DNA of 32,000 nt from Geobacter metallireducens GS-15 (GCF_000012925.1 NC_007517.1:2820001-2852000), one strand, 5' to 3'; shown: positions 909-30,496, counted from the first letter of the stretch. Program-made: numbers and translations. The notes: generated from the letters alone by a model not told the origin.

Positions 909-2813
909 CTACGCCTCCGACCGCTTGGTTTCGAGCTCTTCCCAGCGAAGGAGAAGTTCCTCCAGTTTCTCTCCCATATGGGCGAATTCCGTGGAAAGGG
1001 CCGCTATCCCCCCCGGCGCCCCAGCATAGGCGGCAGGATCCGCCAGGGCGGCTTCCACCTCCGCCGTCCGGAGCTCCAGGTGGGCGATCTCCGCCTCGAC
1101 CCGCTCGAGCTCCTGCCTTTCGGCAAAGGTGAGCCCCTTCTTGCGGGGCCGTTCGCGTACCGCAGGAGGTGCCGCAACGGGCCTGCCACTCCCGCCCTTA
1201 TTCTCTTCTTTCAGATTTTGCGCTCTCAGCTCCCGGTAGAGGGTGTAGTTCCCTTCGTAGAAGACGGTCCTCCCCTCTCCCTCGAAGGAGAGGATGCCCG
1301 TTGCCACCTTATCGAGGAAAAAGCGATCGTGGGTCACCATGAGGATACAGCCGGGAAAGCGGGTCAGGGCATCGTCCAGAAGCTGCAGCGTCGGGATGTC
1401 GAGGTCGTTGGTGGGCTCGTCCAGGACGAGGAGGTTGGCGTCCGCCAGCATGAGGCGCGCCAGGATGAGGCGGCTCTTCTCGCCGCCGGAGAGGGTGGCG
1501 ATCCGCCGCATCCGGTCGGACGGCGGAAAGAGGAACTCCTCCAGGTAGCCAATCTTGTGGCGCCGCTCCCCCCCCACCGTCACGTAATCCCCCTCGCCGA
1601 GGAAATCATAGAGGGTCAGTGACGGATCGAGGATTTCCCGGTTCTGGTCAAAGTAGGCGATGCGGGTCTTGGCACCGATTACCACCGTCCCGCCATCGGG
1701 CGGCTCTTCCCCCATGATCATCCGCATGAGGGTGGTCTTGCCGCAGCCGTTGGGGCCAATGATCCCGACCCGGTCGCCGCGCTTCATGAGGAAGGTGAGG
1801 TCGTCCACCAGGAGCTGTCCCCCCAGGGACTTCCGCACCCCCTGGAGCTCCATGATGGTGCCACCCAGACCATCACCGGGGGTGAAGGCGATGGTGGTCT
1901 CCCGGGTCGTCTCCACCTGTGCACGGGCCTCAAGGTCGTGGAACCGGTCGATGCGGGCCTTCTGCTTGGTGGTGCGGGCCTTGGGGCCCCGCCGCATCCA
2001 GGCGGTCTCGTTCCGGAGGAGATTCAGGAGCCGGTCGTGCCCCCGGGCCTCCCGGGCCAGCCGCTCCTCCCGCTGGATGAGGTAGCTGGAGTAACCGCCG
2101 CTGTATGCAGTAATCAGGCCCCGCTCCAGGTCCAGCATCCTCCCCACCACCTGGTCGAGGAAGTAGCGGTCGTGGGTTATGAGGAGCACCGCGCCGGAAT
2201 AGGCCATAAGGTGCTCCTGAAGCCACTGGACCGTGTCGGCGTCCAGGTGGTTGGTGGGCTCGTCCAGAAGGAGGAGGTCCGGGGCCTGGAGGAGGAGGCG
2301 CCCCAGGGCCACCCGCCGCTTCGTCCCGCCGGAGAGCTCGCCGAGACGCCGGTTCCGGTCGGGGATTCCCAGGTGGGTCATGATCTCCGCCACCCGGTGG
2401 TCGGTGTTCCAGCCGCCATGGTGTTCTATCCAGGAGGTCAGCTCTCCCTGGCGCTCCAGGAGCCGGTCGTGGTCCGGCGACGGCTCGGCAAGCTGTGCCG
2501 TCACCCCCTCGTACTCGGTCATGACCCGCCGGATCTCCACGAGACCTTGCTCAATCTCCTCGCCGATGGTGAGCCCGTCGTCAAGGAGCGGCTCCTGGGA
2601 GAGGTAGCCGATGGACGCGCCGCGACGGGTCATGATGGTGCCGCCGTCCCGCTCCTCAAGCCCCGCAAGGATCTGCATGAGGGTCGACTTGCCGCAGCCG
2701 TTGACGCCGATGAGGCCGACCTTCTCCTCCTCGCCCACGGCAAAGGTGACACCGTCGAGAACCGTGCGGGAGCCGAAACTCTTGGCGAGCCCGACAACAT
2801 CGATGACATTCAT
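909..2813 (-). CDS. ABC-F family ATPase (Uup/YheS-like; two ABC cassettes plus C-terminal coiled coil)
   Basis: 634-aa ORF. Two Walker A motifs (GVNGCGKST, GPNGCGKTT), two LSGG signatures (LSGGTKRR, LSGGEKSR), two Walker B motifs (LLLLDEPTNHLD, LLVLDEPTNDLD) and no TM segments. The Glu/Arg-rich helical tail is typical of ABC-F. Confidence 0.9.
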   Translation of the reverse strand: MNVIDVVGLAKSFGSRTVLDGVTFAVGEEEKVGLIGVNGCGKSTLMQILAGLEERDGGTIMTRRGASIGYLSQEPLLDDGLTIGEEIEQGLVEIRRVMTEYEGVTAQLAEPSPDHDRLLERQGELTSWIEHHGGWNTDHRVAEIMTHLGIPDRNRRLGELSGGTKRRVALGRLLLQAPDLLLLDEPTNHLDADTVQWLQEHLMAYSGAVLLITHDRYFLDQVVGRMLDLERGLITAYSGGYSSYLIQREERLAREARGHDRLLNLLRNETAWMRRGPKARTTKQKARIDRFHDLEARAQVETTRETTIAFTPGDGLGGTIMELQGVRKSLGGQLLVDDLTFLMKRGDRVGIIGPNGCGKTTLMRMIMGEEPPDGGTVVIGAKTRIAYFDQNREILDPSLTLYDFLGEGDYVTVGGERRHKIGYLEEFLFPPSDRMRRIATLSGGEKSRLILARLMLADANLLVLDEPTNDLDIPTLQLLDDALTRFPGCILMVTHDRFFLDKVATGILSFEGEGRTVFYEGNYTLYRELRAQNLKEENKGGSGRPVAAPPAVRERPRKKGLTFAERQELERVEAEIAHLELRTAEVEAALADPAAYAGAPGGIAALSTEFAHMGEKLEELLLRWEELETKRSEA

Positions 2814-3313
2814 TGCCGGAAACCTTTCAGCAAGTCGGTGACACCCTTGAGAATACCGGAAGTACGGTAGCGCTCCGGCACGGCAAACACACTCTCCTTG
2901 CTCACCGGCACCGTGGTGGTACCGAAGGGGGTTTCCACCTCGAGCCCGGCGTTCAGCCGATAGGGAATCTTATTCTGGTCTGGCTGGCGCTTGAGGATTT
3001 CCCACAGATCCCCATAAGCGACCTTGAAGGGAAGCCGCACATCAGTGGCCTTATCGGCGGGGAACTCGATCCGCTCGCGCTTTCCCCCCTTGGTGAGCGG
3101 GAGCGCCATGACGTTCAGATCATAGGTGTAGCCGTTCAGGACCAGGGGAAACGAATTGGGGTTGGTGACCGTCAGGAGGAACTCGAGATCCACCCCCTCG
3201 ACGCCGATCCCGACAACATTCAAATCCCTGACTTTCACTTCCGGCTTATCCAGGAACAGCGAACAGCCGGCGCAGAAAATCATGCACACAACCAGAATCA
3301 ACAGCTTTTTCAT
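2810..3313 (-). CDS. LEA type 2 / WHy-domain lipoprotein
   Basis: I start the ORF 2810..3388 at the internal Met (cat at 3311-3313), giving MKKLLILVVCMIFCAGCSLF, a lipobox. The body (KVRDLNVVGIGVEGVDLEFLLTVTNPNSFPLVLNGYTYDLNV) matches the LEA_2 pattern. Its stop TGA (2812-2810) overlaps the ABC-F ATG (2813-2811) as ATGA, suggesting translational coupling. Confidence 0.7.
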   Translation of the reverse strand: MKKLLILVVCMIFCAGCSLFLDKPEVKVRDLNVVGIGVEGVDLEFLLTVTNPNSFPLVLNGYTYDLNVMALPLTKGGKRERIEFPADKATDVRLPFKVAYGDLWEILKRQPDQNKIPYRLNAGLEVETPFGTTTVPVSKESVFAVPERYRTSGILKGVTDLLKGFRQ

Positions 3314-3455
3314 GCAACCCTCCTGACATCTCCGCGATTTGCAGCCCCACCTTACCACATCCGTCCCCTGCCGCGCGAGAAGTACCACGAAAAAGGGCAG
3401 ACTCCTTGCGAAGTCCGCCCTTCGTGCTGGGTTGTCCTGCTCGCCTGCGGCAGAG

Positions 3456-4103
3456 CTATGAGACCTTGGCGAACGAGAAGCGCAAATCCACGGCCCGGAC
3501 GTGGAGGGGAGTGCCGAGTTCCCTCAGGATCTCTCGCTGGTAGCGGCGGCGCTTGATTTCGTAGGCATCGGCTTCGGGACCGACGCCGCAGTAGAGTTTC
3601 TTTGCCCTCACCAGATTGCCGCGGGCCATGTCGAGCTTGGTGGCCAACTCCCGAACAGCGGCCTCCGCGCATTTTTCGTCATTGGCCATCTCGTGGGGGT
3701 TGAATCCGTGGCTCTCTGCCCGATAGGGCATGAGCTGCCAGACACCAAGGGCACCCTTCGACGAAACCGCCTTCGGGTCGAAGCCGATGGAACCGGTTTC
3801 GGCCAAGGCCAGTTCGGCAAGGTCGAGGGGCATGAAATCGGTACCGAGGGTTTTCAGGTAGCAGAGGGATGCGAGCCGGTAGGCCCGGTCGGGGGTGGTG
3901 CGTCGCGCAAACACCGTGGCAATGGCCCGTGCCTGTCGTTGACGTTCATCCAACTCGATACCCTGATCCATGAGCCGACGGACTTCCAGGTCAACACCGG
4001 ATTCGCTGAGGACCACCGTGACGGGGTCCCGGCGCAGAGCGGTCTGGTTGCAGGAAACACCAGTGAGCATCATGACTGCCGATAGAAGGATCATTTTTTT
4101 CAT
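3456..4103 (-). CDS. lytic transglycosylase (SLT domain) lipoprotein/secreted protein
   Basis: I start the ORF 3456..4265 at the internal Met (cat 4101-4103), giving MKKMILLSAVMMLTGVSCNQ. SLT-type motifs are present: LAETGS (catalytic Glu context) and GALGVWQLMPYRAESHG. Confidence 0.75.
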   Translation of the reverse strand: MKKMILLSAVMMLTGVSCNQTALRRDPVTVVLSESGVDLEVRRLMDQGIELDERQRQARAIATVFARRTTPDRAYRLASLCYLKTLGTDFMPLDLAELALAETGSIGFDPKAVSSKGALGVWQLMPYRAESHGFNPHEMANDEKCAEAAVRELATKLDMARGNLVRAKKLYCGVGPEADAYEIKRRRYQREILRELGTPLHVRAVDLRFSFAKVS

Positions 4104-4320
4104 AGTTATTTTTTGGGTCGGTTTTTGAGGCTTTGCCGGACGGTCAACGAAACGGAACGGGACAGCGCGACGAACGCGCAGGACCGGCACCGGCCAATAA
4201 CTCCTTTCCTTGATGTAGAGACGACTGGATTTCCAGGTCTCCCGGCTATGCGACAGAGTCGCCATGGTCCACGAAAATAGCTAACAAACATCCTTAATGA
4301 AGCAATCTCAACTCAGAAAC

Positions 4321-4350
4321 AGCAAAAGGACCCAAAGCGGGTCCTTTCCC
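4321..4350 (-). terminator. putative rho-independent terminator downstream of trpB
   Basis: Perfect 9-bp stem AAAGGACCC (4325-4333) / GGGTCCTTT (4339-4347) with loop AAAGC. On the minus strand it runs into TTTTGCTGTTTC. It lies about 140 nt after the trpB stop. Confidence 0.5.
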
Positions 4351-4487
4351 TGTGTCCGTTCTATTTTACGGACGAGTCGTGTTATACGGTAAAACAGCGT
4401 GCAATGTCAAGCTATTTTTTTATATTAGCCTGTATTTTCAACAAGTTACAAAGGCATTTTTCGGCATAGTGTTCATTTTTACAAATA

Positions 4488-5678
4488 CTAAAACTGTACC
4501 CCCATGGCGTCGGCCACCGTGTGAATATCCTTGTCCCCCCGGCCGGAGAGGCAGGCGACGATGGTCTGCTCCCTCGGCAGTGTCGGCGCCAGCTTCACCA
4601 CGTGGGCGATGGCGTGGGACGACTCCAGGGCCGGCATGATCCCCTCCTCCCGGGTCAGGAGCGTGAAGGCCTCCAGGGCCTCATCGTCGGTGACCGACAC
4701 ATACTCGGCCCGCCTGGAATCCTTGAGCCAGGCGTGCTCGGGGCCAACGCCGGGGTAATCAAGGCCGGCGGAAACGGAGTGGGCATTGGCTATCTGGCCG
4801 AACTCATCCTGGAGGAGGTAGGTCTTGTTGCCGTGGAGAACGCCGACCGTCCCGGCGCAGAGCGGCGCCGCGTGGGCTCCGGAGGCGATGCCGTGGCCCG
4901 CGGCCTCCACCCCCACCATCCGGACCTCCCGGTCATTGAGGAACGGGTAGAAGAGCCCCAGGGCATTGCTGCCGCCGCCGACGCAGGCAACGAGAACATC
5001 CGGCAACCTTCCCTCGATCTTCTTGTGCTGGGCCTTGGCCTCCCGGCCGATGACCGACTGGAAGTCGCGGACCATCACCGGATAGGGGTGGGGTCCCGCC
5101 ACGGTGCCGATCACGTAGAAGGTGTTGTGGATGTAGGTCACCCAGTTCCGCATGGCCTCGTTCATGGCGTCCTTGAGGGTGGCGGTGCCGGCGGTCACCG
5201 GCGTAACCTTCGCCCCCAGGAGCTTCATCCGGAAGACGTTCAGGGCCTGGCGCCGGATATCCTCCTCCCCCATGAAGACCTCGCACTCCATGCCGAAGAG
5301 GGCCGCAATGGTGGCCGTGGCCACCCCGTGCTGGCCGGCACCGGTCTCGGCAATGACCCGTTTCTTCCCCATCCGCTTGGCCAGAAGCCCCTGGCCGATG
5401 GTATTGTTCACCTTGTGGGCACCGGTGTGGTTCAGGTCCTCGCGCTTGAGGTAGATCTTCGCGCCCCCCAGCTTTTGCGTGAGCTTCTCGGCAAAGTAGA
5501 GGGGATTGGGGCGCCCCACGTACTGGCGGAGGTAGTAGTCGAACTCCTCCTTGAACTCGCGGTCGTTCTTGTAGTGGTTGTAGGCCTTCTCCAGCTCCAG
5601 GAGCGCCGGCATGAGGGTTTCCGGCACGTAACGGCCGCCGAACTGGCCGAAGTGGCCCTGTTTGTCGGGTAATTTCAT
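4488..5678 (-). CDS. trpB: tryptophan synthase beta chain (TrpB1 type)
   Basis: 396 aa. N-terminus [19 protein letters not shown], the PLP-lysine context [11 protein letters not shown], and GGGSNALG are all canonical TrpB1 motifs. Confidence 0.95.
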
Positions 5679-6822: not shown

Positions 6823-8194
6823 GCCTCGTCCGCAGAATCTGTGGGTAGTTGGCTGAAAAAATAAGGGCATTGCCCCTCCGTGAAGGATAAGATTGTTTTT
6901 GCGAGAAACGATCAAGTCCGACACGGGAGAAGCAATGCTTATCAAGACTGTACTGAACAAGTTCGAGCGTTTCAAGTCCTTCATTTACGGAGATTGCCGA
7001 CTGGCGAAAGTCGGCGGCTCAGAAGCACTGGTCATTGACATCAAGGCTCGTCGCAACAGCAAGCCCGAATGCCCGGAATGTGGCAAGCGAGGCAAGACAT
7101 ACGACACGCAACCGGCCCGACTGTTCGAGTATGTGCCGATCTGGGCGTTCAAGGTCTTCTTTCGCTACGCTCCCCGTCGGGTTCTGTGCCCAATCCATGG
7201 GGTAAAGGTTGAATCCCTCCCCTGGGGGTATGGCAAAGAGCAAATGACGATCTCGTACCAGGTCTATCTTGCCCGGTGGGCTCGGCGACTCTCCTGGAAG
7301 GAAGTTGCCGAAATCTTTAAGACCAGTTGGGACAGCATCTTTCGGGCGGTGCAGTATGCTGTCGATTACGGCCTGGCAAACAGAAACCTTGATGGCGTTA
7401 CGGAAATCGGTGTTGATGAAATTGCCGTCTTCAAGGGCCATCAGTATCTTACGATGGTCTATCAGCTCAATGCCGGCGTCAGGCGTCTTCTCTGGTGTGG
7501 TCCGCAACGTCGGATAAGAACGCTACTGCGCTTCTTTCGGGAATTCGGCAAAGAACGCAGCGCCAAGCTCAAGTATGTCTGCAGCGACATGTGGGCACCG
7601 TATCTCAAGGTTATCGCCAAGCGGGCACCCAATGCCGTGAACATCCTCGACCGCTTCCACATCATGCGGAAGTTTAACGAAGCGATTGACGAGGTTCGGC
7701 GCACCGAAGCCAAGGAGTTCAAGGCCGCCAAGCAGGAGAACGTCCTGGAAAAGGGCCGTTGGTTGCTGCTGAAACGGCCGGAAAATCTGTCCGAGAAGCA
7801 GACGTCACGATTGGGAGATTTGCTCAAGCTCAACCTCTCATCAATCAAGGCATATCTGCTGCGCGAGGACTTTCAGCAGTTCTGGGACTACCAGCGGTCT
7901 GACTTTGCTGGCAAGTTCCTCGACGACTGGGTCATCAGGACAATGCAAACTGACCTGGAACCGATGAAGAAGGTTGCCAGGATGTTACGCAACCACAAAC
8001 CGATGATTCTCAACTGGTTCAAGGCAAAAGGCCGACTTTCCAGCGGCGCGGTAGAGGGTCTGAACCTCAAAGCAAAACTGACTATCAGAAAAGCGTACGG
8101 TTTCCGAACCATCAAGTGCCTGCAAGTGGCGCTATATCACACACTTGGCGACTTGCCAGAACCCCTGTGTCACCACAGATTCTGCTAAAGAGCC
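6823..8194 (+). mobile_element. ISL3-family insertion sequence (1372 bp) with 8-bp target duplication TTAAATTG
   Basis: Terminal inverted repeats are GCCTCGTCCGCAGAATCTGTGG (6823-6844) and the reverse complement of 8173-8194, GGCTCTTTAGCAGAATCTGTGG; the inner 13 nt are identical. Direct repeats TTAAATTG occur at 6815-6822 and 8195-8202. An 8-bp duplication is the ISL3 hallmark. Confidence 0.85.
6935..8188 (+). CDS. ISL3-family transposase
   Basis: The ORF 6893..8188 is probably started at ATG 6935 (MLIKTVLNKFERFK). It has an N-terminal zinc-ribbon CPECGKRG...CP and a DDE_Tnp_ISL3-like body (GVDEIAVFKGHQYLTMVYQL ... DMWAPY ... NAVNILDRFHIMRKFNEAIDEVRR ... SGAVEGLNLKAK). Confidence 0.9.
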   Translation: MLIKTVLNKFERFKSFIYGDCRLAKVGGSEALVIDIKARRNSKPECPECGKRGKTYDTQPARLFEYVPIWAFKVFFRYAPRRVLCPIHGVKVESLPWGYGKEQMTISYQVYLARWARRLSWKEVAEIFKTSWDSIFRAVQYAVDYGLANRNLDGVTEIGVDEIAVFKGHQYLTMVYQLNAGVRRLLWCGPQRRIRTLLRFFREFGKERSAKLKYVCSDMWAPYLKVIAKRAPNAVNILDRFHIMRKFNEAIDEVRRTEAKEFKAAKQENVLEKGRWLLLKRPENLSEKQTSRLGDLLKLNLSSIKAYLLREDFQQFWDYQRSDFAGKFLDDWVIRTMQTDLEPMKKVARMLRNHKPMILNWFKAKGRLSSGAVEGLNLKAKLTIRKAYGFRTIKCLQVALYHTLGDLPEPLCHHRFC

Positions 8195-8870
8195 TTAAAT
8201 TGAAACCGACAGCAGCTAGGATTTCCTTAGTCCATGTGAACGGAACCCGGCATTTGCGGTAGAAACTCTTCCTGAGATTCCAGCCACTGTCAATCTTTTC
8301 GTAGATTAGGTCATGCACCTTGACGTGCTCTAGCTCGTACTCAAGAAAGCAGGTAAAGATTTTGTCTGCATCGTTTCGGACTGGAATAAACCGATCCAGC
8401 CCCTCTAGAGCGGTCGTGAGATCACGGAAGGTCAGGACCAATCGGCCTTTCTCCTCCAAGGCTACAAAGGCTAATCGGCAGAGCTTCTCAACCGCTTCCC
8501 GGTTATCAAGGTGGGTTAAAGTGTCTCCCATACAGACGCACAACTCAGCCTTTCCCTGTAGATGTCTTGGAAAGTTCAGCAGATCGTCCTCTACGGTCAT
8601 TATAGATAGCTCGTCCCGCCGCATGTTCAACTCGACCAACAGCTTAGGGGAAAGGTCGATGGCTGTAACCTGAAAGCCCGCACGGGCCAGCGGTATTGAT
8701 TGAAAACCTGAGCCGGCGCCGAGGTCTATCGCCCGGCGGTTGCCTTGCGGGGTGATCCCGTGGGCCGCGAAGAATCTTTCGTTTTCCGTTGCCCTCGCCT
8801 CAAAGCTGCCAAAGAGCCAGGAGTAATGATCAGCCAAGAGATTTTCGTAATGATCGCGGATGTAAGACAT
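8112..8870 (-). CDS. class I SAM-dependent methyltransferase; the native C-terminus is replaced by an ISL3-encoded tail
   Basis: SAM-binding motif AIDLGAGSGFQSIPLARAGFQVTAIDLS. Codons 1-225 (8870-8196) are native and the last 27 residues (RLFSRICGDTGVLASRQVCDIAPLAGT) are read from the IS end. Removing 6823-8202 restores ...GFNLTLATLDKGLVTIIASKQ* (242 aa, stop at 6764-6762). Confidence 0.8.
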   Translation of the reverse strand: MSYIRDHYENLLADHYSWLFGSFEARATENERFFAAHGITPQGNRRAIDLGAGSGFQSIPLARAGFQVTAIDLSPKLLVELNMRRDELSIMTVEDDLLNFPRHLQGKAELCVCMGDTLTHLDNREAVEKLCRLAFVALEEKGRLVLTFRDLTTALEGLDRFIPVRNDADKIFTCFLEYELEHVKVHDLIYEKIDSGWNLRKSFYRKCRVPFTWTKEILAAVGFNLRLFSRICGDTGVLASRQVCDIAPLAGT

Positions 8871-8909: not shown

Positions 8910-9034
8910 GGGGGCTGGGAAGGGGACGGGGGCTGAGTACCGGGAAGGGGACGTAGTTGATTTGTTGATTTAAGCGTTGAGTTAGTCAACTAATCAACTA
9001 CGTCCCCCGATAGACCCCGTCCCCCGATAGACCC
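8910..9034. repeat. copy 1 of the ~85-bp imperfect palindrome family (composite/nested copy)
   Basis: The core GGGAAGGGGACGTAGTTGATTTGTTGATTTAAGCGTTGAGTTAGTCAACTAATCAACTACGTCCCCCGATAGACCCC (8942-9018) is identical to copy 2. It is nested inside a second partial pair of arms: GGGGGCTGGGAAGGGGACG at 8910-8928 and GTCCCCCGATAGACCC at 9019-9034. Confidence 0.9.
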
Positions 9035-9239
9035 TCAATCAAATAGCTTTAGTCTTTTGTACCATGATTTCTGGTTTTCAAAATTGCGGCTTCTCATTTA
9101 ATCCCATTTCAATAAGCTATTTTAAGCTCGGAACACCATGATCTTAGTGTTTGGTTCTTCTATTCTTGCTCAACGGGGCTGCGCTTGATCTGCCGGACGT
9201 ATTCATGCCCGGTCAAGGTCTGAGCGCGGGTTGGACATT

Positions 9240-10160
9240 TTATAGCATTGCTGCTACAGCACACAATCGGTGTTTGAAATACTCGATCCAAGGGTCGTTA
9301 AAATTTATCGTGGCAGCAACAGTTGAAGGGAGTCGCCCAGCCAATCCGTTGCAATCGTGTGGTTGACCCGTCATGATACGCTCAACTTCATCTGCAAGAA
9401 TCAATGAAAACCATTTCCCCTTAAAAATTCTATGATGTTGACCTGTTTTGAAATATCTATCAATCTTCTTATTCGACAATTCCACTTTCCTCATCATTTC
9501 ATCGAAAGATATGTTTGTACGTTGCGCAAGTGTGCGGACAAGGGATTCAAGTGCAATCGTGTCTGTCATACCACAATTACGTGTCTGAATTCGTGAAGGT
9601 GCTCCATAGTTTGCTTCACCACGGATTCCATCTTCAATGAGACGGAAACACAATGCAATCCAGTCACGCCATAAGTGAGAAACCCTTCTGCACCATTCAG
9701 ATGAATTTCCAAGCACACCATGAAGCTTACGAGGATCAATCGAGGCAGCTGCCGCAACTCCAGTAACAAGATCGCCATGCTCAAATATGTAATTTTGAAC
9801 ATCATAATACTGTGTATATATGACGTGTGTTGATCGTAGTTGCTTGCGCTTTATATCGTCAATATCCTTGTCTAAAATGAAAATACAAGCCGTTCTTTTG
9901 CCTTCGAAAAAAGATATGAGCGCACTTTTTCGACGGAGGCACCTAAAATAAGAAATCAACGCTTCTTTGCCACCGGCTCCTCCAGAAATTTGTTGGGCTG
10001 TCGAAATCTCAAATTCAATACTATCGGGTAGTGAAGCTTTACAGACTTTAGCAAAAAAATACGGATCACTCTGCTTCCCTTCGACAAAAATGAAAAGTTG
10101 AGTATTGGAAATCTGCATTGAACGAATATGCCCTGAGTTTGAATGTATTAGACGACTCAT
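9240..10160 (-). CDS. DUF4435 / TOPRIM (OLD-family-like) nuclease-domain protein, AriB-like
   Basis: I start the ORF 9240..10196 at ATG 10160 (MSRLIHSN...), which has GAGGTGG 8 nt upstream; that Shine-Dalgarno sequence overlaps the ATPase stop. TOPRIM-type acidic motifs are LFIFVEGKQSDPYFF (Glu) and IFILDKDIDD (DxD). It directly follows an ABC-type ATPase gene, as in ATPase+DUF4435 pairs. Confidence 0.7.
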   Translation of the reverse strand: MSRLIHSNSGHIRSMQISNTQLFIFVEGKQSDPYFFAKVCKASLPDSIEFEISTAQQISGGAGGKEALISYFRCLRRKSALISFFEGKRTACIFILDKDIDDIKRKQLRSTHVIYTQYYDVQNYIFEHGDLVTGVAAAASIDPRKLHGVLGNSSEWCRRVSHLWRDWIALCFRLIEDGIRGEANYGAPSRIQTRNCGMTDTIALESLVRTLAQRTNISFDEMMRKVELSNKKIDRYFKTGQHHRIFKGKWFSLILADEVERIMTGQPHDCNGLAGRLPSTVAATINFNDPWIEYFKHRLCAVAAML

Positions 10161-10173
10161 ATATATGGCCACC

Positions 10174-10626
10174 TCATATCCTGAATATTTTATCATCAGA
10201 AATATCAGCCATTATTTCAGGCGAATGTGTAGCAAATATTAACTGTGCATCAGCATTAAGTGCTCGTATTGAACTAACCAAGTCTTTTTGCCAATCTATA
10301 TGCATTGAAATTTCAGGTTCATCTATTATAAGTGAACTATCACCAATAAGTAGAGATTCTACCAATATTTTAAGTAGGTGCTTTTCGCCAGATGACAGAG
10401 TTGCTAACCCTATATCTTCGCCTGACATGCTCTTAACCTGTATTGATTTGTCTCCAAAATGAATTGATTTATTAGCAGTAAACATTTTTGAGATAAGCTT
10501 TTGCAGCATGTCTCTTGAACTCACTGCTGACTTAATTTTTTCCTCTACTGAATCAATGTCTTGAACTACATCTTGTAATGTTTGATCAGTTACATATCGT
10601 TTTTCAAAATCACTTCTCTTTCCTAG
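10174..10626 (-). pseudogene. 3' fragment of an ABC/SMC-type ATPase (AriA-like) interrupted by IS5
   Basis: Contains the ABC signature LSSGEKHLL, Walker B SLIIDEPEISMH and H-loop FATHSPE. It is in frame with the 5' fragment once 10627-11971 is removed (see the finding on this gene pair). Confidence 0.85.
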
Positions 10627-11967
10627 CAGGTTGTTGAAAAACTAAACCTTTTTGATTCAATAAGTTAGCGAACTGTGCTATATTTTTACGCGTAACAATC
10701 TGAATTTACAGGAGAAAAGTTATGCGCGGCGCCGAGACAAAAACCGAAGCTCTGTTCTGTTATCTCTCCCCTGAGTCGTACGTCCCGAAGGACCACCCCT
10801 TGCGGTCGATCAGGGCGATGGTGGATAAGGCCCTTGCAGAGCTCAGCCCGCAATTCGAGGCCATGTACTCCCACACCGGCCGGCCCTCGATTCCTCCTGA
10901 GCAGTTGCTTAAAGCACTTCTGCTTCAGGCGCTGTACACCATCAGGAGTAACCGTCTGCTGGTGGAGCAGATCAGCTACAGCATCCTGTTCCGCTGGTTT
11001 GTGGGATTGGCCCTGGACGAGAAGGTCTGGGACCACTCCTCGTTTTCCACCAACCTGGAGCGGTTGATCGATACCGACGTGGCACGGCTGCTCTTGGCAA
11101 AAGTAGTTGAGCAGGCCCGAAGGGCAAAGCTGTTGTCCGACGAGCACTTCAGCGTTGACGGCACCCTCATCGAGGCGTGGGCTTCTATCAAGAGCTTTCG
11201 GCCCAAGGATGGACCAAAGCCTCCAGTGGGTCGTAACACGGAGCGTGATTTCCACGGCGAAAAGCTCAAAAACGACACCCATGCCTCCACCACCGATCCG
11301 GATGCGCGGATTGCCAGGAGAAGCTCGGGCAAAGAGGCGAAGCTCAGTTACCACGGGCACGCTCTCATGGAGAACCGCAACGGGATCATCGTCGATGCCA
11401 GAATCACCCACGCAACCGGTACCGCTGAGCGGGATACCGCAGTCGAGATGATCGCAGACGTCGCCGGTAACAAGCGGATCACCATGGGCGGCGACAAGGG
11501 CTACGACACCAAAGAGTGCGTCAAAGATCTGCGAGCACTCAAGGTAACCCCTCACATTGCTCAGAACACCGCTAACCGCCGCTCAGCCATCGATGGCAGG
11601 ACTACCCGCCACGAAGGCTACAAAACCAGCCTGAGGATTCGCAAGCGGATCGAAGAGGCCTTCGGCTGGCTCAAGACTGTCGGCAATCTCCGCAAGACCC
11701 GGCATCGGGGAATAGCGAAAGTCGACTGGTACTTCACCATGGCCATTGCGGCATACAATCTGGTCCGGCTGCGCAATCTCGGGACGAAAACGGCATAATC
11801 AGGGGAATAATGCGACTCTTGGTGGCAAAGCCCGCCCGAAAAGGCCAAATCAAGGTAAAAAGCAAAGTTTCAAAGAACGAATAGGGCGAGATCAATGCAA
11901 CTATCGGCCTAAAATGATCTCCTTGAAGGGGATTGCCCTGGAAATGAAGGAGTTTTTCAACGGCCTG
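10627..11967 (+). mobile_element. IS5-family insertion sequence (1341 bp) with 4-bp target duplication CTAG
   Basis: Terminal inverted repeats are CAGGTTGTTGAAAAACT (10627-10643) and the reverse complement of 11951-11967, CAGGCCGTTGAAAAACT (15/17). CTAG occurs at 10623-10626 and 11968-11971. A 4-bp CTAG-type duplication is typical of the IS5 group. Confidence 0.85.
10722..11798 (+). CDS. IS5-family DDE transposase
   Basis: 358 aa. The N-terminal domain (YVPKDHPLRSIRAMVD ... GRPSIPPEQLLKALLLQALYTIRSNRLLVEQISYSILFRWFVGL) is InsH-N-terminal-like. The DDE body includes SVDGTLIEAWAS, GDKGYD and RKRIEEAFGWLK. Confidence 0.9.
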   Translation: MRGAETKTEALFCYLSPESYVPKDHPLRSIRAMVDKALAELSPQFEAMYSHTGRPSIPPEQLLKALLLQALYTIRSNRLLVEQISYSILFRWFVGLALDEKVWDHSSFSTNLERLIDTDVARLLLAKVVEQARRAKLLSDEHFSVDGTLIEAWASIKSFRPKDGPKPPVGRNTERDFHGEKLKNDTHASTTDPDARIARRSSGKEAKLSYHGHALMENRNGIIVDARITHATGTAERDTAVEMIADVAGNKRITMGGDKGYDTKECVKDLRALKVTPHIAQNTANRRSAIDGRTTRHEGYKTSLRIRKRIEEAFGWLKTVGNLRKTRHRGIAKVDWYFTMAIAAYNLVRLRNLGTKTA

Positions 11968-12709
11968 CTAGAATTGAAGCGGTTGACTGCCTATCAAGAA
12001 ATGACTTAACCAAATCATACGCGGCGTTAGCAGTGAGTATGTTCTTTCCACAGCTATTTCTTACACTCTGAGGTGAAAGAACTGCTCGAAGTATGCTGGC
12101 TAATCCTTGCTCTTGTGCAGCGCGAACTACACCCAACATCTCAGCAGAATATTTACTCCATAGGATTTCAACTGATTTTGCAAATAATGAATCAAGGTTT
12201 TCTTCCGTTAGCCAAGGCCGACTACCACGGGGATTGTCTTGGGACAGAAAACTCATTTCGTCGCTTACATGGATACGCGAAGTAGGCAGGAACTGGTGCG
12301 CCCAGCGTGTATCTGCACCTTCTTTATCAGAACAAGACCATGACATGTTTTTTTGTAACAGCTGCTCGCGAATAATAACCATTTCATTTTCAATAAATGA
12401 AGGTTGCTTCTTTGATTTGCTAATTCTGGATGAACTATTCTTGCGTATAGCCTTTTTCTCAATTGATCGAGTAAATACCTTGTTGTAATTTAAAGAAAAT
12501 ATGCTTACTTCCGCAGACTTAAATGGAACACCGCTTAGGATCTCTGTCTCGTTAGCCATTGCAGAATGCAGAATTTTTAATAGGGAAGTCTTACCGCTCC
12601 CATTCTGGCCAAAGAATATATTGGTGTCACGATTAAGGTCCATTTCGAGAGGCTTGTCGCGACCAGCGAGCCCTTCAATTCTAAAAGACACGATATGAGA
12701 CATTGCCAT
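11968..12709 (-). pseudogene. 5' fragment of an ABC/SMC-type ATPase (AriA-like) interrupted by IS5
   Basis: MAMSHIVSFRIEGLAGRDKPLEMDLNRDTNIFFGQNGSGKTSLLK (Walker A GQNGSGKTS). The native reading frame ends at the CTAG target site; the track ORF continues 3 codons into the IS (AGR*). The second ATG (12703) has better Shine-Dalgarno spacing. Confidence 0.85.
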
Positions 12710-12830
12710 TTCCTTCCATATAATGATTTTTAAAAAATTCGAATATTACGTCGATTGTTCAACAGCTCAAGGCGCCAGCGGCGGAGCGTCAGCGGAGACC
12801 GCTGTCGCCGCTGGATACTATGTAAGGCCC

Positions 12831-12924
12831 CCCTTGGGGGCTGGGAAGGGGACGTAGTTGATTTGTTGATTTAAGCGTTGAGTTAGTCAACTAATCAACT
12901 ACGTCCCCCGATAGACCCCGAGGG
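12831..12924. repeat. copy 2 of the ~85-bp imperfect palindrome family
   Basis: Arms CCCTTGGGGGCT-GGGAA-GGGGACGTAGTTGATT and AATCAACTACGTCCCC-CGAT-AGACCCCGAGGG. The inner stem is 16 bp and perfect; the outer stem is about 12 bp with 2 mismatches; they are separated by an unpaired 5/4-nt internal loop. It begins directly at the stop codon of the Mrr-type gene. Confidence 0.9.
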
Positions 12925-13722
12925 TTATCTGTTTACTGCTTCAATACTTCCGTCTTCTCTAAGATAAAGAGAGTTGTTTTCAAATACATCTTCCATTATT
13001 GCTCGTGCGACATCATCAACTGTAATAATGTCTTCGGTTTGATGTTCATGCACTGCAACTGTGTATTCTGCCGATTTTATTTTCAGGTTACCTATTTCAG
13101 TGGGGAAATAGGCATCTTCTGGCTCAATTTCTTGAGATGAACCAGTAGGCAATAGTGTAAAGAGATCTCTGAACTTGCATTTCGGAGTACCTTGAGAGTC
13201 AAATATCAGCTCTCGGCCTGAAATGTCATGTGTTTGTAAGGAATAGACTTGAAGTCCTCTTTCGCGAAGCAGCTGTTTTGCATGATCAGTGTCGAACGTC
13301 AGATTGGTAACAGATATTTGCGGTATTTTGAAGTGACCGGTCAGGTGGATGGTCTTTAGGATGTAGTTCACTAGTATCAATCTGATGCCTTTCTCTTTGG
13401 CTAACAGTTTGGCTCCATTCTGAAAACCTTCGGTGGTGGCAAAAATCCCTGTTGCATTACCTATGTCCTCCAGAATTGAAGCGAAGGCAGCCACATGAGA
13501 TTTCTTAACAGATTCCTTGAATTGCTTGCATTCAATACAGGTTTTATACGTCACGCCAGCAAGACGAAATTCCCAGTAAACGTCGATTTGATGGGACGCA
13601 CCACTCTTACCTCTGAGCTTCACATTCTGCAATACTGTTATGTTCTCTACGCCATCGTTCTTAAGGAGCGCATCATGCACATCCTTAACAAGGCGTTCGT
13701 ATCCTTCAGACTCTTTTGTCAT
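12925..13722 (-). CDS. restriction endonuclease (Mrr_cat, PD-(D/E)xK) domain protein with an unassigned C-terminal half
   Basis: 265 aa. GASHQIDVYWEF ... YKTCIECKQFKESVKKSHVAAFASILEDIGNATGIFATTEGFQNGAKLLAKEKGIRLILVN fits the Mrr catalytic-domain pattern (D ... E-x-K, then the GIF-TT-GF segment). I cannot assign the last ~140 aa. Confidence 0.7.
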   Translation of the reverse strand: MTKESEGYERLVKDVHDALLKNDGVENITVLQNVKLRGKSGASHQIDVYWEFRLAGVTYKTCIECKQFKESVKKSHVAAFASILEDIGNATGIFATTEGFQNGAKLLAKEKGIRLILVNYILKTIHLTGHFKIPQISVTNLTFDTDHAKQLLRERGLQVYSLQTHDISGRELIFDSQGTPKCKFRDLFTLLPTGSSQEIEPEDAYFPTEIGNLKIKSAEYTVAVHEHQTEDIITVDDVARAIMEDVFENNSLYLREDGSIEAVNR

Positions 13723-13763
13723 TCGATTTTATGCTCCAGATAACGGGGCTGAGGGTGTGCGGT

Positions 13764-13855
13764 CTTGGGGGCTGGGAAGGGGACGTAGTTGATTTGTTGA
13801 TTTAAGCGTTGAGTTAGTCAACTAATCAACTACATCCCCCGATAGACCCCCATGG
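13764..13855. repeat. copy 3 of the ~85-bp imperfect palindrome family
   Basis: Same core as copies 1 and 2 with one substitution (CTACATCCCC versus CTACGTCCCC). It lies between the higA-like stop and the Mrr-type gene start. Confidence 0.9.
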
Positions 13856-13942
13856 CAGTTAGGAGGAAACTTAGAGTGTCAGGTCTACACCTTGACACTT
13901 TCTGGTAGAACGAAAGCTATCCCTCGCCGCTCTCCAGTCTGA

Positions 13943-14319
13943 TCAAGCCGCGTTTTTGTAAGTATTGTAAGGCTGAATCAGAACGTCTGCCGGTATGCCG
14001 AGACCTTTATGAAGATTCCGGATCATCTCCATGGTCAGCGAACGTTTGCGGTTAAGCACTTCTGATACACGGGCGCGGCTCCCGATATAAGGCTCGAGGT
14101 CGCGACGTGTCAGCCCGCGGCTTTCCATGTAATACAAATTGCCTCAATCGGATCAGGCATAGGGATGCTATAGCGCCTTTCCTCATAGGCTTCCACAAGG
14201 ATTGCCAGCACATCCAGCCGATCTCCTTCAGGTGTATCGGGAGCGGCGTCGAACAGAAGCTCAATCTCTTTGAGCGCGGCCTGATAATCGACCTCGGTTT
14301 TTATAGGTCTGATTTCCAT
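13943..14319 (-). pseudogene. higA: HigA-family (COG5499-type, XRE HTH) antitoxin with a frameshift
   Basis: Track ORFs 14110..14379 (from Met 14319: MEIRPIKTEVDYQAALKEIELLFDAAPDTPEGDRLDVLAILVEAYEERRYSIPMPDPIEAI) and 13943..14137 (YYMESRGLTRRDLEPYIGSRARVSEVLNRKRSLTMEMIRNLHKGLGIPADVLIQPY) are the two halves of one protein family. They are offset by one nucleotide near 14128-14135 (GCAATTTGTATTACATGG). GGAG lies 7 nt before ATG 14319. Confidence 0.7.
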
Positions 14320-14332
14320 ATAATTTCTCCGT

Positions 14333-14416
14333 TCAGATTGTTGCCGCATCAATTTTGTCGTACTCACGATGAGTACCAACGGAATATAGAGTGTCTACAC
14401 CTCGTCTCTCTATGAC
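14333..14416 (-). pseudogene. higB: 3' remnant of a HigB-family (COG4680-type) toxin gene
   Basis: The last 27 codons of track ORF 14333..14872 read VIERRGVDTLYSVGTHREYDKIDAATI*. This matches the conserved C-terminus of this toxin family (..F/YIGTHxEYDKIDAxTI). The stop lies 13 nt before the higA-like ATG. Everything upstream is trpF terminator or trpF, so about 70 codons are missing. Confidence 0.6.
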
Positions 14417-14419
14417 CAT

Positions 14420-14456
14420 GCAAGAAAAGGGGTTGGAATTCCTTCCGTCCCCTTTC
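14420..14456 (-). terminator. putative terminator of trpF at the island junction
   Basis: Stem AAAGGGG (14426-14432) / CCCCTTT (14449-14455) encloses the GGAATTCC palindrome. The minus strand continues with TTTTCTTG. It starts about 30 nt after the trpF stop (14485-14487). Confidence 0.45.
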
Positions 14457-14484: not shown

Positions 14485-15093
14485 CTATGCTTTCGCCCGT
14501 CGAATAAACTCCCGCACCTTGGCCGCATCCTTTCGGCCCGGGGCGCTCTCCACACCGCCCGAAACGTCCACGGCGTAAGGGTTCACTGCCTCCACCGCCT
14601 CGCGAATGTTGTCGGGGGTGAGCCCGCCGGCAAGGATGACCGGGCCGAACTCCTTGGCCGCCGCTGCGATGTCCCAGTTGAAGGTGAGGCCGGTGCCGCC
14701 GTAGGCCTTGGGGGAATAGGCATCGAGGAGATGGGCCGCGACGCGGTAGTGCTTGATCGGGTCGAGACTCGTGATGTCCTGTACCCGGAAGGCCTTGATC
14801 ACCCGGCGCTCCACGGCTGCGCAGAACTCGGGAGGCTCGTCGCCGTGGAGCTGGACCAGGTCGATGCGGCACCGGGCCGCTGTTTCGTTGACGTATGCGA
14901 TGGGGCGGTTTACGAAGAGGCCCACGGTCTGCACGAAGGGGGGAAGCCCGGCGATGATGCCGGTGGCCTGCTCGGGGGGCACGTGACGGGGAGAGTCTTC
15001 ATGGAAGACGAAGCCGAGGGCATCGGCTCCGGCCTCCACCGCCATGAGGGCGTCCTCCAGGGAGGTTATGCCGCAGATCTTGACGCGAACCAT
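14485..15093 (-). CDS. trpF: phosphoribosylanthranilate isomerase
   Basis: 202 aa. MVRVKICGITSLEDALMAVEAGADALGFVF ... VQLHGDE ... ILAGGLTPDNI, typical TrpF. Start lies 4 nt after the trpB2 stop. Confidence 0.9.
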   Translation of the reverse strand: MVRVKICGITSLEDALMAVEAGADALGFVFHEDSPRHVPPEQATGIIAGLPPFVQTVGLFVNRPIAYVNETAARCRIDLVQLHGDEPPEFCAAVERRVIKAFRVQDITSLDPIKHYRVAAHLLDAYSPKAYGGTGLTFNWDIAAAAKEFGPVILAGGLTPDNIREAVEAVNPYAVDVSGGVESAPGRKDAAKVREFIRRAKA

Positions 15094-16473: not shown

Positions 16474-16605
16474 GAATAACACAGAGCAACTGAGCAACAG
16501 AGAAAAACAATGAATTTATAACGCCTGATCCTATCAATAGAAGCAGAAGCATCCTCGTTTATTTGTTTTCTCAGGTTTTACTCAGTTGCTCAGTTGCTTG
16601 TATGT
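16474..16605. repeat. intra-operon inverted-repeat element A (between trpC and trpB2)
   Basis: AGCAACTGAGCAAC (16485-16498) and GTTGCTCAGTTGCT (16585-16598) are perfect 14-bp inverted repeats. GAGAAAAACAA (16500-16510) pairs with TTGTTTTCTC (16563-16572). The centre is AT-rich. The left terminus GGAATAACACAGAG resembles that of element B. Confidence 0.75.
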
Positions 16606-22785: not shown

Positions 22786-22814
22786 AAAGGGGAGTCGGTG
22801 ACGGCTCCCCTTTG
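22786..22814 (+). terminator. htpG terminator hairpin (copy 1 of a thrice-repeated hairpin)
   Basis: AAAGGGGAGTCG-GTGA-CGGCTCCCCTTT: a 12-bp stem with one G-U pair, followed by GTCGTTTG. Confidence 0.6.
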
Positions 22815-22843
22815 TCGTTTGCGCGGTGTTGGCAATGAGATGC

Positions 22844-23663: not shown

Positions 23664-23690
23664 GGGGAGGCGGTGACGACTCCCTTTTTT
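23664..23690 (+). terminator. terminator-like hairpin, copy 2
   Basis: GGGGAGGCG-GTGA-CGACTCCC followed by TTTTTT. It has the same loop and arm sequence family as 22786-22814. Confidence 0.55.
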
Positions 23691-23714
23691 CGTTGGGGCG
23701 TTGCAAAGAACACC

Positions 23715-24393: not shown

Positions 24394-24419
24394 GGGGAGT
24401 CGGCAACGGCTCCCCTTTT
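24394..24419 (+). terminator. terminator-like hairpin, copy 3
   Basis: GGGGAGTCG-GCAA-CGGCTCCCC followed by TTTT. The arms are identical to copy 1. Confidence 0.55.
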
Positions 24420-24440
24420 CCGTTGCTTGGATTGGACGCC

Positions 24441-29293: not shown

Positions 29294-30352
29294 ATGCCCG
29301 AATCGATCCTCGCCACTTTCACTGTCAAGCGCCTGGAGATCATCGCCCCGGACGGGACCGCCGACGAGGACCTCGTCCCGGGCCTCTCGGGGGACGAACT
29401 GCGGCGCATCTACTACCTGCTCCTCCTCACCCGCGCCTACGACGGCCGCGCCCTGGCCCTCCAGCGGGAGGGGCGGCTCGGCACCTACCCGTCGGTCCTG
29501 GGGCAGGAGGCGGCCCAGGTGGGGAGCGCCTTCGCCATCCACGAGCGGGACTGGGTCTTCCCCTCCTTCCGGGAGATGGGGGTCCACCTCACCCTCGGCT
29601 ATCCGGCCCACCAGCTCTTTCAGTACTGGGGAGGTGACGAGCGGGGGATGCGAACTCCTGACGGCATGAACATCTTCCCCATCTCCGTCTCCGTGGGAAC
29701 CCACATCCCCCACGCCGCCGGCGCGGCCCTGGCCGCGAAACTCCGGGGTGACCCGATCGCTGTGATCGCCTATTTTGGCGACGGCGGCACCTCAAAGGGT
29801 GATTTCCATGAGGGGTTCAACCTGGCAGGAGTCATGGGGCTCCCGACGGTTTTTATCTGCCAGAACAACCAATGGGCCATCTCGGTGCCCCTGTCGGCCC
29901 AGACTGCCTCCCGATCCCTTGCCCAGAAGGCCCTTGCCTACGGTTTCGACGGCATCCAGGTGGACGGCAACGACGTCCTGGCCGTCTACCGGGCCACCCG
30001 CGAGGCCCTGGAGAAGGCCCGAAGCGGCGGCGGACCCACCTTCATCGAATGCCTCACCTACCGGATGTCCGACCACACCACGTCCGACGACGCGAGCCGG
30101 TACCGTTCCCCCGAAGAAATGGAACAATGGCGGGAGCGGGACCCGATCCTGCGCTACGAGCGGTTCCTGGCGAAGCGGGGACTCTGGAACGAGGACTATG
30201 CCGCCGAGATGAAGGGAAAGGCGGGAGGAGAGATCGACGAGGCGGTGCGGCGCTACGAATCGGTGCCGCCGCCAGCGCCGGGGGAGATGTTCAATTTCGT
30301 GAGTGGGGAGTTGTCGGCGAGGCTGCGGCGACAGCGGGAAACATCTACTTGA
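29294..30352 (+). CDS. 2-oxoacid (pyruvate/branched-chain) dehydrogenase E1 component, alpha subunit
   Basis: 352 aa. TPP-binding motif YFGDGGTSKGDFHEGFNLAGVMGLPTVFICQNNQWAIS, and YRMSDHTTSDD. Confidence 0.9.
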   Translation: MPESILATFTVKRLEIIAPDGTADEDLVPGLSGDELRRIYYLLLLTRAYDGRALALQREGRLGTYPSVLGQEAAQVGSAFAIHERDWVFPSFREMGVHLTLGYPAHQLFQYWGGDERGMRTPDGMNIFPISVSVGTHIPHAAGAALAAKLRGDPIAVIAYFGDGGTSKGDFHEGFNLAGVMGLPTVFICQNNQWAISVPLSAQTASRSLAQKALAYGFDGIQVDGNDVLAVYRATREALEKARSGGGPTFIECLTYRMSDHTTSDDASRYRSPEEMEQWRERDPILRYERFLAKRGLWNEDYAAEMKGKAGGEIDEAVRRYESVPPPAPGEMFNFVSGELSARLRRQRETST

Positions 30353-30496
30353 ATAACACGGAGAGACGGAGAACACGGAGTAAAATCAAGCTGTTATTCT
30401 TCAGCAACAATTTGATTCAGTACTCCTTCTTGGCTCAAAATAAATAAATGGTTCAAGGGGTTGCCTTCTCCGTGCCCTCCGTCTCTCCGTGTTATT
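30352..30496. repeat. intra-operon inverted-repeat element B (between E1alpha and E1beta)
   Basis: AATAACACGGAGAGACGGAGAACACGGAG (30352-30380) versus the reverse complement of 30468-30496, AATAACACGGAGAGACGGAGGGCACGGAG (27/29). The centre is AT-rich. It starts at the last base of the E1alpha stop codon and ends 25 nt before the E1beta ATG. Confidence 0.8.

Follow-up and report, generated by a model that had tools for sequence, protein, structure and literature searches.

Results

A low-GC block of the trp cluster holds three near-identical palindromes

We analysed a 32,000-nt stretch of the Geobacter metallireducens GS-15 genome (the window; its positions are counted from its first letter), in which three near-identical palindromes lie among the genes of a low-GC block. 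The block, at ~5.7–14.5 kb, has 35–50% G+C compared with ~62–68% for the genome, and is flanked directly by trpF (14485–15093) and trpB1 (4488–5678). According to the GS-15 genome paper of 2009, non-conserved genes separate the trp genes in Geobacter, and the palindrome copies are Gmet_R9001–R9004, "predicted short RNAs" of group 9, for which no function was proposed. Three of these four lie in the window; the fourth is found 3' of Gmet_2534 and the low-GC gene Gmet_2535. Strain RCH3 has the same Mrr-type gene (protein Gmet_2490 in GS-15) and the same two adjacent palindromes. An initial annotation of the window, made from the sequence alone, had proposed that the palindromes are non-canonical recombination sites of an integron cassette array with no integrase nearby, or else a family of repetitive extragenic palindromes (REPs) or miniature inverted-repeat transposable elements (MITEs). 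As it had noted, no integron integrase is found in the 32-kb window by tblastn with a full-length IntI query. The palindromes are as follows, with no strand assigned:

8910–9034: outer shell round copy 1, the flanks of a second unit without the core
8928–9018: inner element of copy 1 (Gmet_R9001), an 84-nt palindromic unit whose left flank is lengthened by the 7 inserted nt AGTACCG
12836–12919: palindromic unit copy 2 (Gmet_R9002), an 84-nt head-to-head pair of Y1-element arms (see below), exact core match
13767–13850: palindromic unit copy 3 (Gmet_R9003), differing from the core at one base (CTACAT instead of CTACGT)

A repeat finder aligns the copies in register at 8932–9023 (89%), 12833–12924 (reference) and 13764–13855 (97%), so that the three near-identical palindromes of the initial annotation are real, with the 84-nt core exact in copy 2 and one substitution in copy 3. 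Its copy 1 (8910–9034) is also present, but not as a plain single unit: the flanks are duplicated or nested, with the 8928–9018 unit inside a second unit that lacks the core and whose halves remain as GGGGGCTGGGAAGGGGAC (8910–8927) and GTCCCCCGATAGACCC (9019–9034). This copy sits in the leader of a methyltransferase gene, ~130 nt downstream of a candidate integron recombination site (attC) at 9168–9236. The unit ends are GGGGGCT and AGACCCC; the 5' arm contains GTTGAT boxes and the 3' arm ATCAAC. The inner stem comprises 22 bp with one T·T mismatch. As single-stranded DNA, both strands of every copy fold far more stably than shuffled sequences (−24.7 to −37.5 kcal/mol, z −3.6 to −8.0; copy 2, −31.5 kcal/mol, z about −8). 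Each of the three copies lies 3' of a minus-strand gene, as had been described; the Mrr open reading frame (ORF) ends 1 base ahead of the copy 2 repeat register and 5 nt ahead of the 84-nt unit.

No direct repeats were found flanking the 84-nt unit, and a MITE with target-site duplication was rejected on that ground. An apparent 4-bp duplication, ACGT, was dropped because the unit boundaries lie further out, as seen from the three copies and the nested copy. Terminal inverted repeats (TIRs) of the Tn3 type (GGGG start, 38 bp) were rejected for want of a 5-bp duplication and a matching transposase, and an oriT/nic-like reading of the flank GTCTATC was rejected because this flank is not conserved in other genomes.

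The palindrome arms are the ends of a Y1 transposase unit

To place the palindrome in a family, we scanned one genome per species and then metagenomes for the pattern ACGTAGTTGAT-N(10–40)-ATCAACTACGT; loci from this and the later homologue searches carry the prefix L below. The core was found at 14 genome loci and 44 metagenome loci, and the named genome hosts are nearly all Geobacteraceae, Desulfuromusa or relatives. The consensus reads (GGCTAA)GGGG-ACGTAGTTGAT-TWGTTGAYTA, then a loop, then the complement, so that each palindrome contains four TWGTTGAY octamers, two per arm. No copy was found in viral contigs.

Clustering of the ORFs that adjoin palindromes led to a gene of ~1 kb for a Y1 transposase. 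The palindrome arm, GGGGAC-GTAG plus the two octamers, recurs as ~30-nt inverted arms that bracket this gene in six of the six examined loci of the protein clade, all independent and from the Desulfuromonadales: L062 (the same as L053 and L054), L067, L068, L075, L076/L077 and L078, the last five having been fetched through homologues of the L062 protein with 66–84% identity. The left arm lies 40–90 nt ahead of the Y1 start codon, and the right arm overlaps the last codons, which encode ...INKSTTSP*. At L062, the left arm is present twice in tandem, up to ~40 nt from the start codon, and the inverted right arm encodes this same C-terminus, and at L025 a fragment of the Y1 gene abuts a complete palindrome. 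Since the same arms bracket a Y1 gene elsewhere, the short palindromes are best described as two unit ends minus the gene.

The protein itself matches Pfam Y1_Tnp (PF01797, E 1.7e-11) and contains the motifs NHVHML and RYIHLNP; its JGI name is "REP element-mobilizing transposase RayT". A match to Bac_DnaA_C, a helix-turn-helix (HTH) domain, is weak for P0001 (E 6e-4) and is precomputed for many homologues. A sequence search of the PDB with the Y1 protein gave no match.

Duplicated unit ends recur: they are seen in window copy 1 and, twice each, at the left end in L062 and L067, in the flank of L076 and at the right end in L078, and tandem duplication of the flank ("xxxGGGGAC" twice) is common among the gene-less family members. 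This hints at re-use of one end in a replicative step. The L067 unit (2085–4960) has a hipBA toxin–antitoxin pair between its two left ends, which indicates that a Y1 unit can carry cargo.

The family is low in copy number (four per genome), and paired copies lie 1.3–1.9 kb apart in L012, L013 and L025. Loops differ in length and sequence across the family, and flanks are uniform within a genome and distinct between genomes; within a genome, copies are nearly the same down to their loop and flanks, and therefore arose by copying. Two copies in L013 (1803–1860 and 3095–3150) have identical flanks and central loops that are mutually reverse-complementary, a "flip/flop" that implies inversion or hairpin-templated copying across the arms. 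IS110-family elements (DEDD_Tnp_IS110 plus Transposase_20) sit exactly after CTACGT in four palindrome loci (L027 1807–1868, on both sides; L031 119–170; L038 89–147; L061 103–162) and share the end sequence TATATAAGAGAGGAG. Their insertion is site-specific, as is that of IS110/IS1111 elements in REPs. Other Y1 subfamilies with flanking repeats of their own occur at L048 2000–3620 (AGAGAAAAGGGGTCAGCCC) and L064 2050–3360 (GGGGTCGGACCAAGC), both of them no more than 400 nt from one of the palindromes described above; several Y1/repeat systems therefore co-occur and cluster. The "GTAG-11" REP family of G. uraniireducens was considered as the same element and rejected: its intragenic copies encode GC-rich peptides, and it is a different family.

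The genes beside the palindromes are diverse, with many toxin–antitoxin and RHS toxin genes and also ordinary metabolic genes, and the palindrome is nearly always 3' of at least one gene. This position raises the question of whether the palindromes act mainly at the RNA level, as short RNAs or as 3' hairpins that stabilize or terminate cassette transcripts, with their spread being secondary. REPs elsewhere stabilize the mRNA upstream of them, and the hairpins described here are very stable. The 2009 annotation as predicted short RNAs points the same way. We consider such a primary role unlikely, as the palindrome has no Rfam match above threshold (just sub-threshold miRNA-hairpin noise), no U-tract follows the hairpin, and the stem is conserved in sequence beyond mere pairing. 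Moreover, the mismatches that we inspected by eye (T·T in the window, T·C in L014) are not of the G·U type that selection on one RNA strand would leave, and the identical sequence serves both as the ends of a transposase unit and as coding sequence for the C-terminus of the enzyme. An effect on transcripts is compatible with the palindromes being Y1 unit ends, as a side effect; it provides no alternative origin.

The paired octamers could also be read as operator-like duplex sites for a host DNA-binding protein unrelated to transposition. Other paired octamer sites, of the form GTTGCTYN, exist in the genome (e.g. 16485–16598), and in L062 and L068 the inner octamer reads as a −35 box ahead of the Y1 gene (TTGACT-16 nt-TATATT). 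We think this very unlikely, given unrelated neighbour genes across the 58 loci and loops and flanks whose identity within a genome points to copying rather than to convergent operators. The octamers are most simply the predicted binding sites of the transposase itself, and the Y1 protein has an HTH.

The genes between the palindromes are integron cassettes

The genes of the block and the insertion sequences among them are listed here.

8112–8870, minus strand: S-adenosylmethionine (SAM) methyltransferase gene, located downstream of copy 1 and overlapping an ISL3 transposase ORF (6893–8188) at its 3' end
9240–12709, minus strand: two-gene cassette, PARIS-like AriA/AriB (Pfam AAA_23/AAA_21/AAA_15; PADLOC AriA, AriB)
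12709–11957 and 10524–10174, minus strand: AriA ATPase gene, split
10196–9240, minus strand: AriB/DUF4435-like gene
10627–11967, plus strand: IS5-family insertion sequence interrupting AriA; 17-bp inverted repeats, CTAG duplication, DUF772 plus DDE_Tnp_1
12925–13743, minus strand: Mrr-type restriction endonuclease cassette (Gmet_2490); TTATCT, 16 nt, ORF 13722–12925; Pfam Mrr_cat
13943–14379, minus strand: frameshifted HTH_3 (HigA-like) antitoxin gene that opens the low-GC block on its trpF side; listed in the genome annotation as Gmet_2491, "transcriptional regulator, frameshifted"

The cassette reading was tested on homologues of the Mrr-type gene. The initial annotation had pointed to two complementary 7-mers, located on the plus strand as GTTATCT at 12924–12930 and AGATAAC at 13738–13744, such that on the coding strand GTTATCT and 16 nt precede the ATG and ...AGATAAC lies at the stop. 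Homologues of this gene lie in three independent canonical cassette arrays, in L074, in L072/L073 (Microbulbifer taiwanensis) and in L071 (a metagenome-assembled genome of the Desulfobacterales), the first of which adjoins an internally deleted integron integrase (intI 2720–3268). These arrays consist of short co-oriented ORFs parted by 56–144-nt sites that start with an AAC box and end with a GTT box. All three homologue contexts have GTTATGT 12–17 nt before the Mrr ATG and the stop inside an ACATAAC R'' box, and a canonical attC of 56–73 nt follows the cassette without any palindrome (L071, L072, L074). The boundary layout shared with the window is GTTATNT, 12–17 nt, ATG, with the stop within an ANATAAC R'' box. 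Because homologous cassettes share this layout, the window Mrr gene is an integron-type cassette and the 7-mer match is no coincidence; the cassette argument of the initial annotation is upheld.

Toxin–antitoxin, nuclease and ATPase genes had been recognized correctly as the cargo, with two corrections: the supposed higBA remnant is an HTH_3 antitoxin-like gene alone, and the gene labelled DUF4435 has no Pfam match and matches PADLOC AriB, its split ATPase partner matching AriA. The IS5 element splits AriA and has thus inactivated the PARIS-like cassette. The overlap of the methyltransferase and ISL3 ORFs at 8112–8188 is apparently due to insertion of ISL3 there. High-GC insertion sequences have thereby invaded the low-GC block twice (IS5, ISL3).

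Two of the palindromes interrupt or replace parts of ordinary attC sites

Ordinary attC sequences accompany the palindromes, all on the minus strand.

12757–12930, minus strand: attC of the Mrr cassette, split by copy 2; R'' AGATAAC at 12930–12924 (holds the stop), R' GTTGAAC at 12763–12757
13738–13766, minus strand: remaining 3' half of the attC that precedes the Mrr cassette; AAGA, CCGCACACCCTCAGCCCC, R' GTTATCT at 13744–13738
9168–9236, minus strand: candidate intact attC of the AriA/AriB cassette, 69 nt; R'' GTCCAAC 5 nt after the AriB-like stop, R' GTTGAGC

Across copy 2, the minus strand reads AGATAAC-C-CTC, then the 84-nt unit, then AAGGGGGGCC...CCAGCGGCG...CGCCGCTGG-CG-CCTTGAG-CT-GTTGAAC, with AAGG and a GC-rich terminal hairpin following the unit. 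Removal of copy 2 restores CTCAAGG, which is complementary to the CCTTGAG placed symmetrically beside the R' box GTTGAAC, and the reconstructed 90-nt attC folds as a single hairpin (−23 kcal/mol, z −3.75). As its deletion rejoins a paired stem, copy 2 is an insertion into the stem of this attC. On the minus strand, a 21-nt sequence that begins 4 nt past copy 3, CCGCACACCCTCAGCCCCGTT, exactly matches the 3' half of an attC in the integron array of L076. That site keeps the partner arm, GGGTGGTGCGG, and in the window copy 3 occupies the place of the 5' arm and loop; a possible R'' box, TCCTAAC, lies upstream of copy 3 at 13868–13862. For the candidate at 9168–9236, both boxes fit RYYYAAC/GTTRRRY, the R'' box is complementary at six of seven positions to the first bases of its own cassette, (G)TTGAAC, and the stem layout parallels that of a canonical attC in L032. 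The features of a cassette array without an integrase (CALIN) are all present at ~5.7–14.5 kb: at least two close attC sites (the split, half and candidate sites), co-oriented ORFs, G|TT boundaries and no intI.

These sites bear directly on the proposal that the palindromes are themselves attC-type sites served by an integrase encoded elsewhere. The palindromes do lie between co-oriented cassettes, at least two intI genes have been reported elsewhere in the G. metallireducens genome, and the arrangement of stem, internal loop and stem is loosely attC-like. Homogeneous attC sites are also known from chromosomal arrays, as in the VCRs of Vibrio. Yet the boxes have the opposite polarity (GTT in the 5' arm, AAC in the 3' arm) and are missing from the outer ends; the 84 nt are identical or one base apart, whereas attC sites conserve structure and vary in sequence; and ordinary attC sequences stand alongside, interrupted by the palindromes. 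The same arms occur 1 kb apart round a Y1 gene, an arrangement impossible for an attC, and most family members adjoin ordinary genes. We therefore regard the attC reading as extremely unlikely, and the role as recombination sites put forward in the initial annotation as not borne out by box polarity, sequence invariance, homologous cassettes, interrupted attCs and Y1 bracketing. Relatives with the same genes and no repeats, which that annotation had itself counted against such a role, are what the Mrr cassettes of L071, L072 and L074 represent.

Other repeats in the window

On the minus strand at ~14400–14440, just past the trpF stop, lies a terminator-like hairpin, GAAAGGGGACGGAAGGAATTCCAACCCCTTTTCTT, with a 5' arm, AAAGGGGAC, similar to the motif in the outer flanks of the family palindromes. 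The octamer sites at 16485–16598 form an inverted pair of tandem GTTGCTYN octamers adjoining trpB2; their counterpart in the GS-15 genome paper is its "class 1 global regulator binding sites", described there as sometimes flanked by ISGme8/9. Class 1 sites are built like the palindrome arms and might also be transposon ends. A further inverted pair at 30352–30496, with 29-nt arms of TCTCCGTS-type repeats that are 93% complementary and 87 nt apart, matches the "class 2" paired sites of the same paper. Finally, a 31-nt terminator-like hairpin, GGGGAGTCGGTGACGGCTCCCCTTT..., is present in three copies (22789–22819, 23664–23694 and 24394–24424, spaced by 875 and 730 nt), which may follow three paralogous short genes.

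Discussion

A cassette array probably colonized by gene-less transposon ends

TIRYTs are homologues of RAYTs, the REP-associated Y1 transposases; long TIRs, most of them with a GGGG motif in common, lie on either side of the TIRYT gene (Di Nocera et al. 2013, PMC3733652; Quentin et al. 2018, PMC6006769). We consider it likely that the low-GC block between trpF and trpB1 is a CALIN-like cassette array and that the palindromes are gene-less TIR dimers of a TIRYT/RAYT-like Y1/HUH unit. Two known kinds of element would then largely explain the palindromes and the genes, and no new recombination site is called for. At the level of sequence, the identity of the arms with the ends of the Y1 unit, the cassette boundaries and the positions of the insertions can all be read directly. 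The REP/MITE-like alternative of the initial annotation was essentially right, with the qualification that the family is of low copy number and is linked to a transposase resembling TIRYTs and RAYTs.

Y1/HUH transposases of the IS200/IS605 superfamily, including TnpA_REP of E. coli, bind hairpins in single-stranded DNA, and cut and rejoin the strand at the hairpin foot. By analogy with these enzymes, we envision that the two arms of the miniature, abutting across a short variable loop, would fold in the single strand into a long hairpin, which a cognate Y1 enzyme acting in trans would cut and rejoin at its base. The two octamers of each arm are predicted binding sites of the Y1 protein. In this way the unit would have been copied into three nearby sites: into the stem of the attC of the Mrr cassette, in place of the 5' half of the attC preceding that cassette, and, in the leader of the following cassette, inside a further copy of itself. 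The same analogy with IS200/IS605 and TnpA_REP suggests Y1 catalysis, mobilization in trans, and possible effects on cassette recombination or on read-through transcripts.

Several observations weigh against this interpretation. No Y1 gene was found in the window, and no GS-15 protein was recognized among the best 120 Y1 homologues; the window copies may be relics, or cassettes may have brought them in. Four copies per genome is far below the abundance of classic REPs, and neither a target-site duplication nor a single consistent target sequence was found. The Y1 protein scores 66 bits against the NCBIfam model REP_Tyr_transpos, for which the cut-off is 80, and the arm start GGGGACGT fits the published TIR motif GGGGWSAS at six of eight positions; that motif is stated to hold for "the majority" of TIRs, not all (PMC3733652; PMC6006769). 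On the cassette side, copy 1 is not inside any attC, and the candidate attC at 9168–9236 folds no better than shuffled sequences (z −0.23). The attC calls and CALIN criteria were applied by hand; a crude attC scanner finds some true attCs and also matches coding sequence, so that its hits serve as pointers.

A possible tie between the Y1 clade and integron arrays

A possible preference of the Y1 element for integron arrays is the sole novel lead to come from this analysis. In its strong form, a Y1 clade of the TIRYT type and its miniatures would be specialized on integron arrays, preferring folded attCs or hairpins on single strands and travelling with the cassettes they have invaded; we raise this tentatively, as a possibility that we would not call probable.

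Several loci are suggestive. Copies 2 and 3 are located in attC sequences, all four GS-15 copies are 3' of low-GC foreign genes, and a decayed intI lies within 5 kb of the Y1 unit in two of the six loci examined. The unit in L067 abuts an integron integrase without its first ~72 codons (358 bits on TIGR02249), and has either disrupted intI or sits at a deletion in it. In L076/L077 the Y1 unit is the fourth unit of an array beside a frameshifted integron integrase. The right arm in L076 is 28 nt before an attC R' box, and the left arm in L078 is 24 nt after one. A related TIRtron in L074 (7841–8588), with perfect 19-nt TIRs (AAAGGGGACGCTACCCTTT) round a frameshifted Y1 gene, lies two cassettes beyond the Mrr homologue, and this integron was reached via the Mrr gene alone.

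The trp cluster, too, seems to be a recurrent home for cassette arrays: on a Geobacter-type contig (L032 1–4435; Ga0208789_1000076), a three-cassette array lies directly downstream of trpB1, with canonical attCs at ~1960–2013, 2987–3052 and 3663–3725 and a palindrome of the family at 4228–4278, after the third cassette.

TAAC is ~3-fold enriched 16–45 nt outside the palindrome core. Against specialization, complementary R''/R' (AAC/GTT) brackets round the palindromes show no excess (3/58 compared with 4.5% in controls), a result that also speaks against the palindromes being attC-type sites, and most of the 58 loci have ordinary neighbours; the arrays may simply be permissive landing zones.

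Should the specialization hold, the family would be a third class of attC-colonizing element, after the IS1111-attC subgroup and group IIC-attC introns, and a test case for whether HUH transposases exploit the single-stranded hairpins of integron integrases and reshape cassette arrays. Apart from this, Gmet_R9001–R9004, "predicted short RNAs" since 2009, are explained as paired ends of a Y1 unit, and the non-conserved genes in the Geobacter trp cluster are identified as integron cassettes with defence and toxin–antitoxin-type cargo (an Mrr-type nuclease, a PARIS-like AriA/AriB pair and an antitoxin remnant). Integron annotation also gains a caution, in that near-identical hairpins between cassettes need not be attC sites, and genuine sites can be split or masked by miniature transposon ends.

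Comparison with known systems

Among integron attC sites and CALINs, the window genes fit as true cassettes: they are co-oriented, have G|TT boundaries and the R'' box at the stop, leave little or no room for promoters, bear defence and toxin–antitoxin cargo and have no intI nearby. The palindromes differ from attC sites in being insertions, with the wrong AAC/GTT polarity and an invariant sequence, and are absent from homologous cassettes. With the IS1111-attC subgroup and group IIC-attC introns (PMC3001079) they share the lodging of a mobile element in attC hairpins and an enzyme that acts on or recognizes folded single strands, the differences being that the enzyme here is a Y1 HUH transposase rather than a DEDD transposase or a retro-element, and that most of the palindromes lie outside recognizable attCs.

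PATEs, the miniatures of IS200/IS605, are likewise non-coding remnants of two hairpin-forming Y1 ends that are mobilized in trans. IS200/IS605 elements have two separate subterminal hairpins and a fixed tetra- or pentanucleotide target, whereas the two ends of the unit studied here pair with each other and no fixed target was found.

REP/REPIN repeats and their RAYTs (Nunvar 2010; Bertels & Rainey 2011; Messing 2012) resemble the family in having GTAG/CTAC at the hairpin foot, an inverted pair of repeats that forms a hairpin, a Y1 gene in single copy with repeats on both sides, use as a target by the IS110 family, and positions mostly 3' of genes. They differ in that the arm studied here consists of two direct octamers and is not itself a palindrome or hairpin, in that there are four copies per genome rather than hundreds, and in that the Y1 protein, below the NCBIfam RAYT cut-off (66 compared with 80), has an extra HTH domain.

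The TIRtron/TIRYT group comes with four departures. No cognate gene was found in the window, each arm of the family holds two direct octamers, GGGGACGT fits GGGGWSAS at 6/8 positions, and the family ranges across the Geobacteraceae/Desulfuromonadales and is recurrent in integron arrays, a link absent from the two papers on the group (PMC3733652; PMC6006769). According to these papers, TIRYTs belong mostly to TnpA_REP subclass 2.1, have a C-terminal HTH such as Bac_DnaA_C, HTH_23 or HTH_28, and have TIRs that form moderately abundant repeat families with dimers and clusters. The unit described here probably belongs to subclass 2.1 and has in common with the group a ~330-aa RAYT homologue of the Y1/HUH type ending in a DnaA-like HTH, long inverted repeats starting with GGGG that bracket the gene, one of which overlaps its 3' end, and gene-less TIR dimers and clusters in low to moderate copy number.

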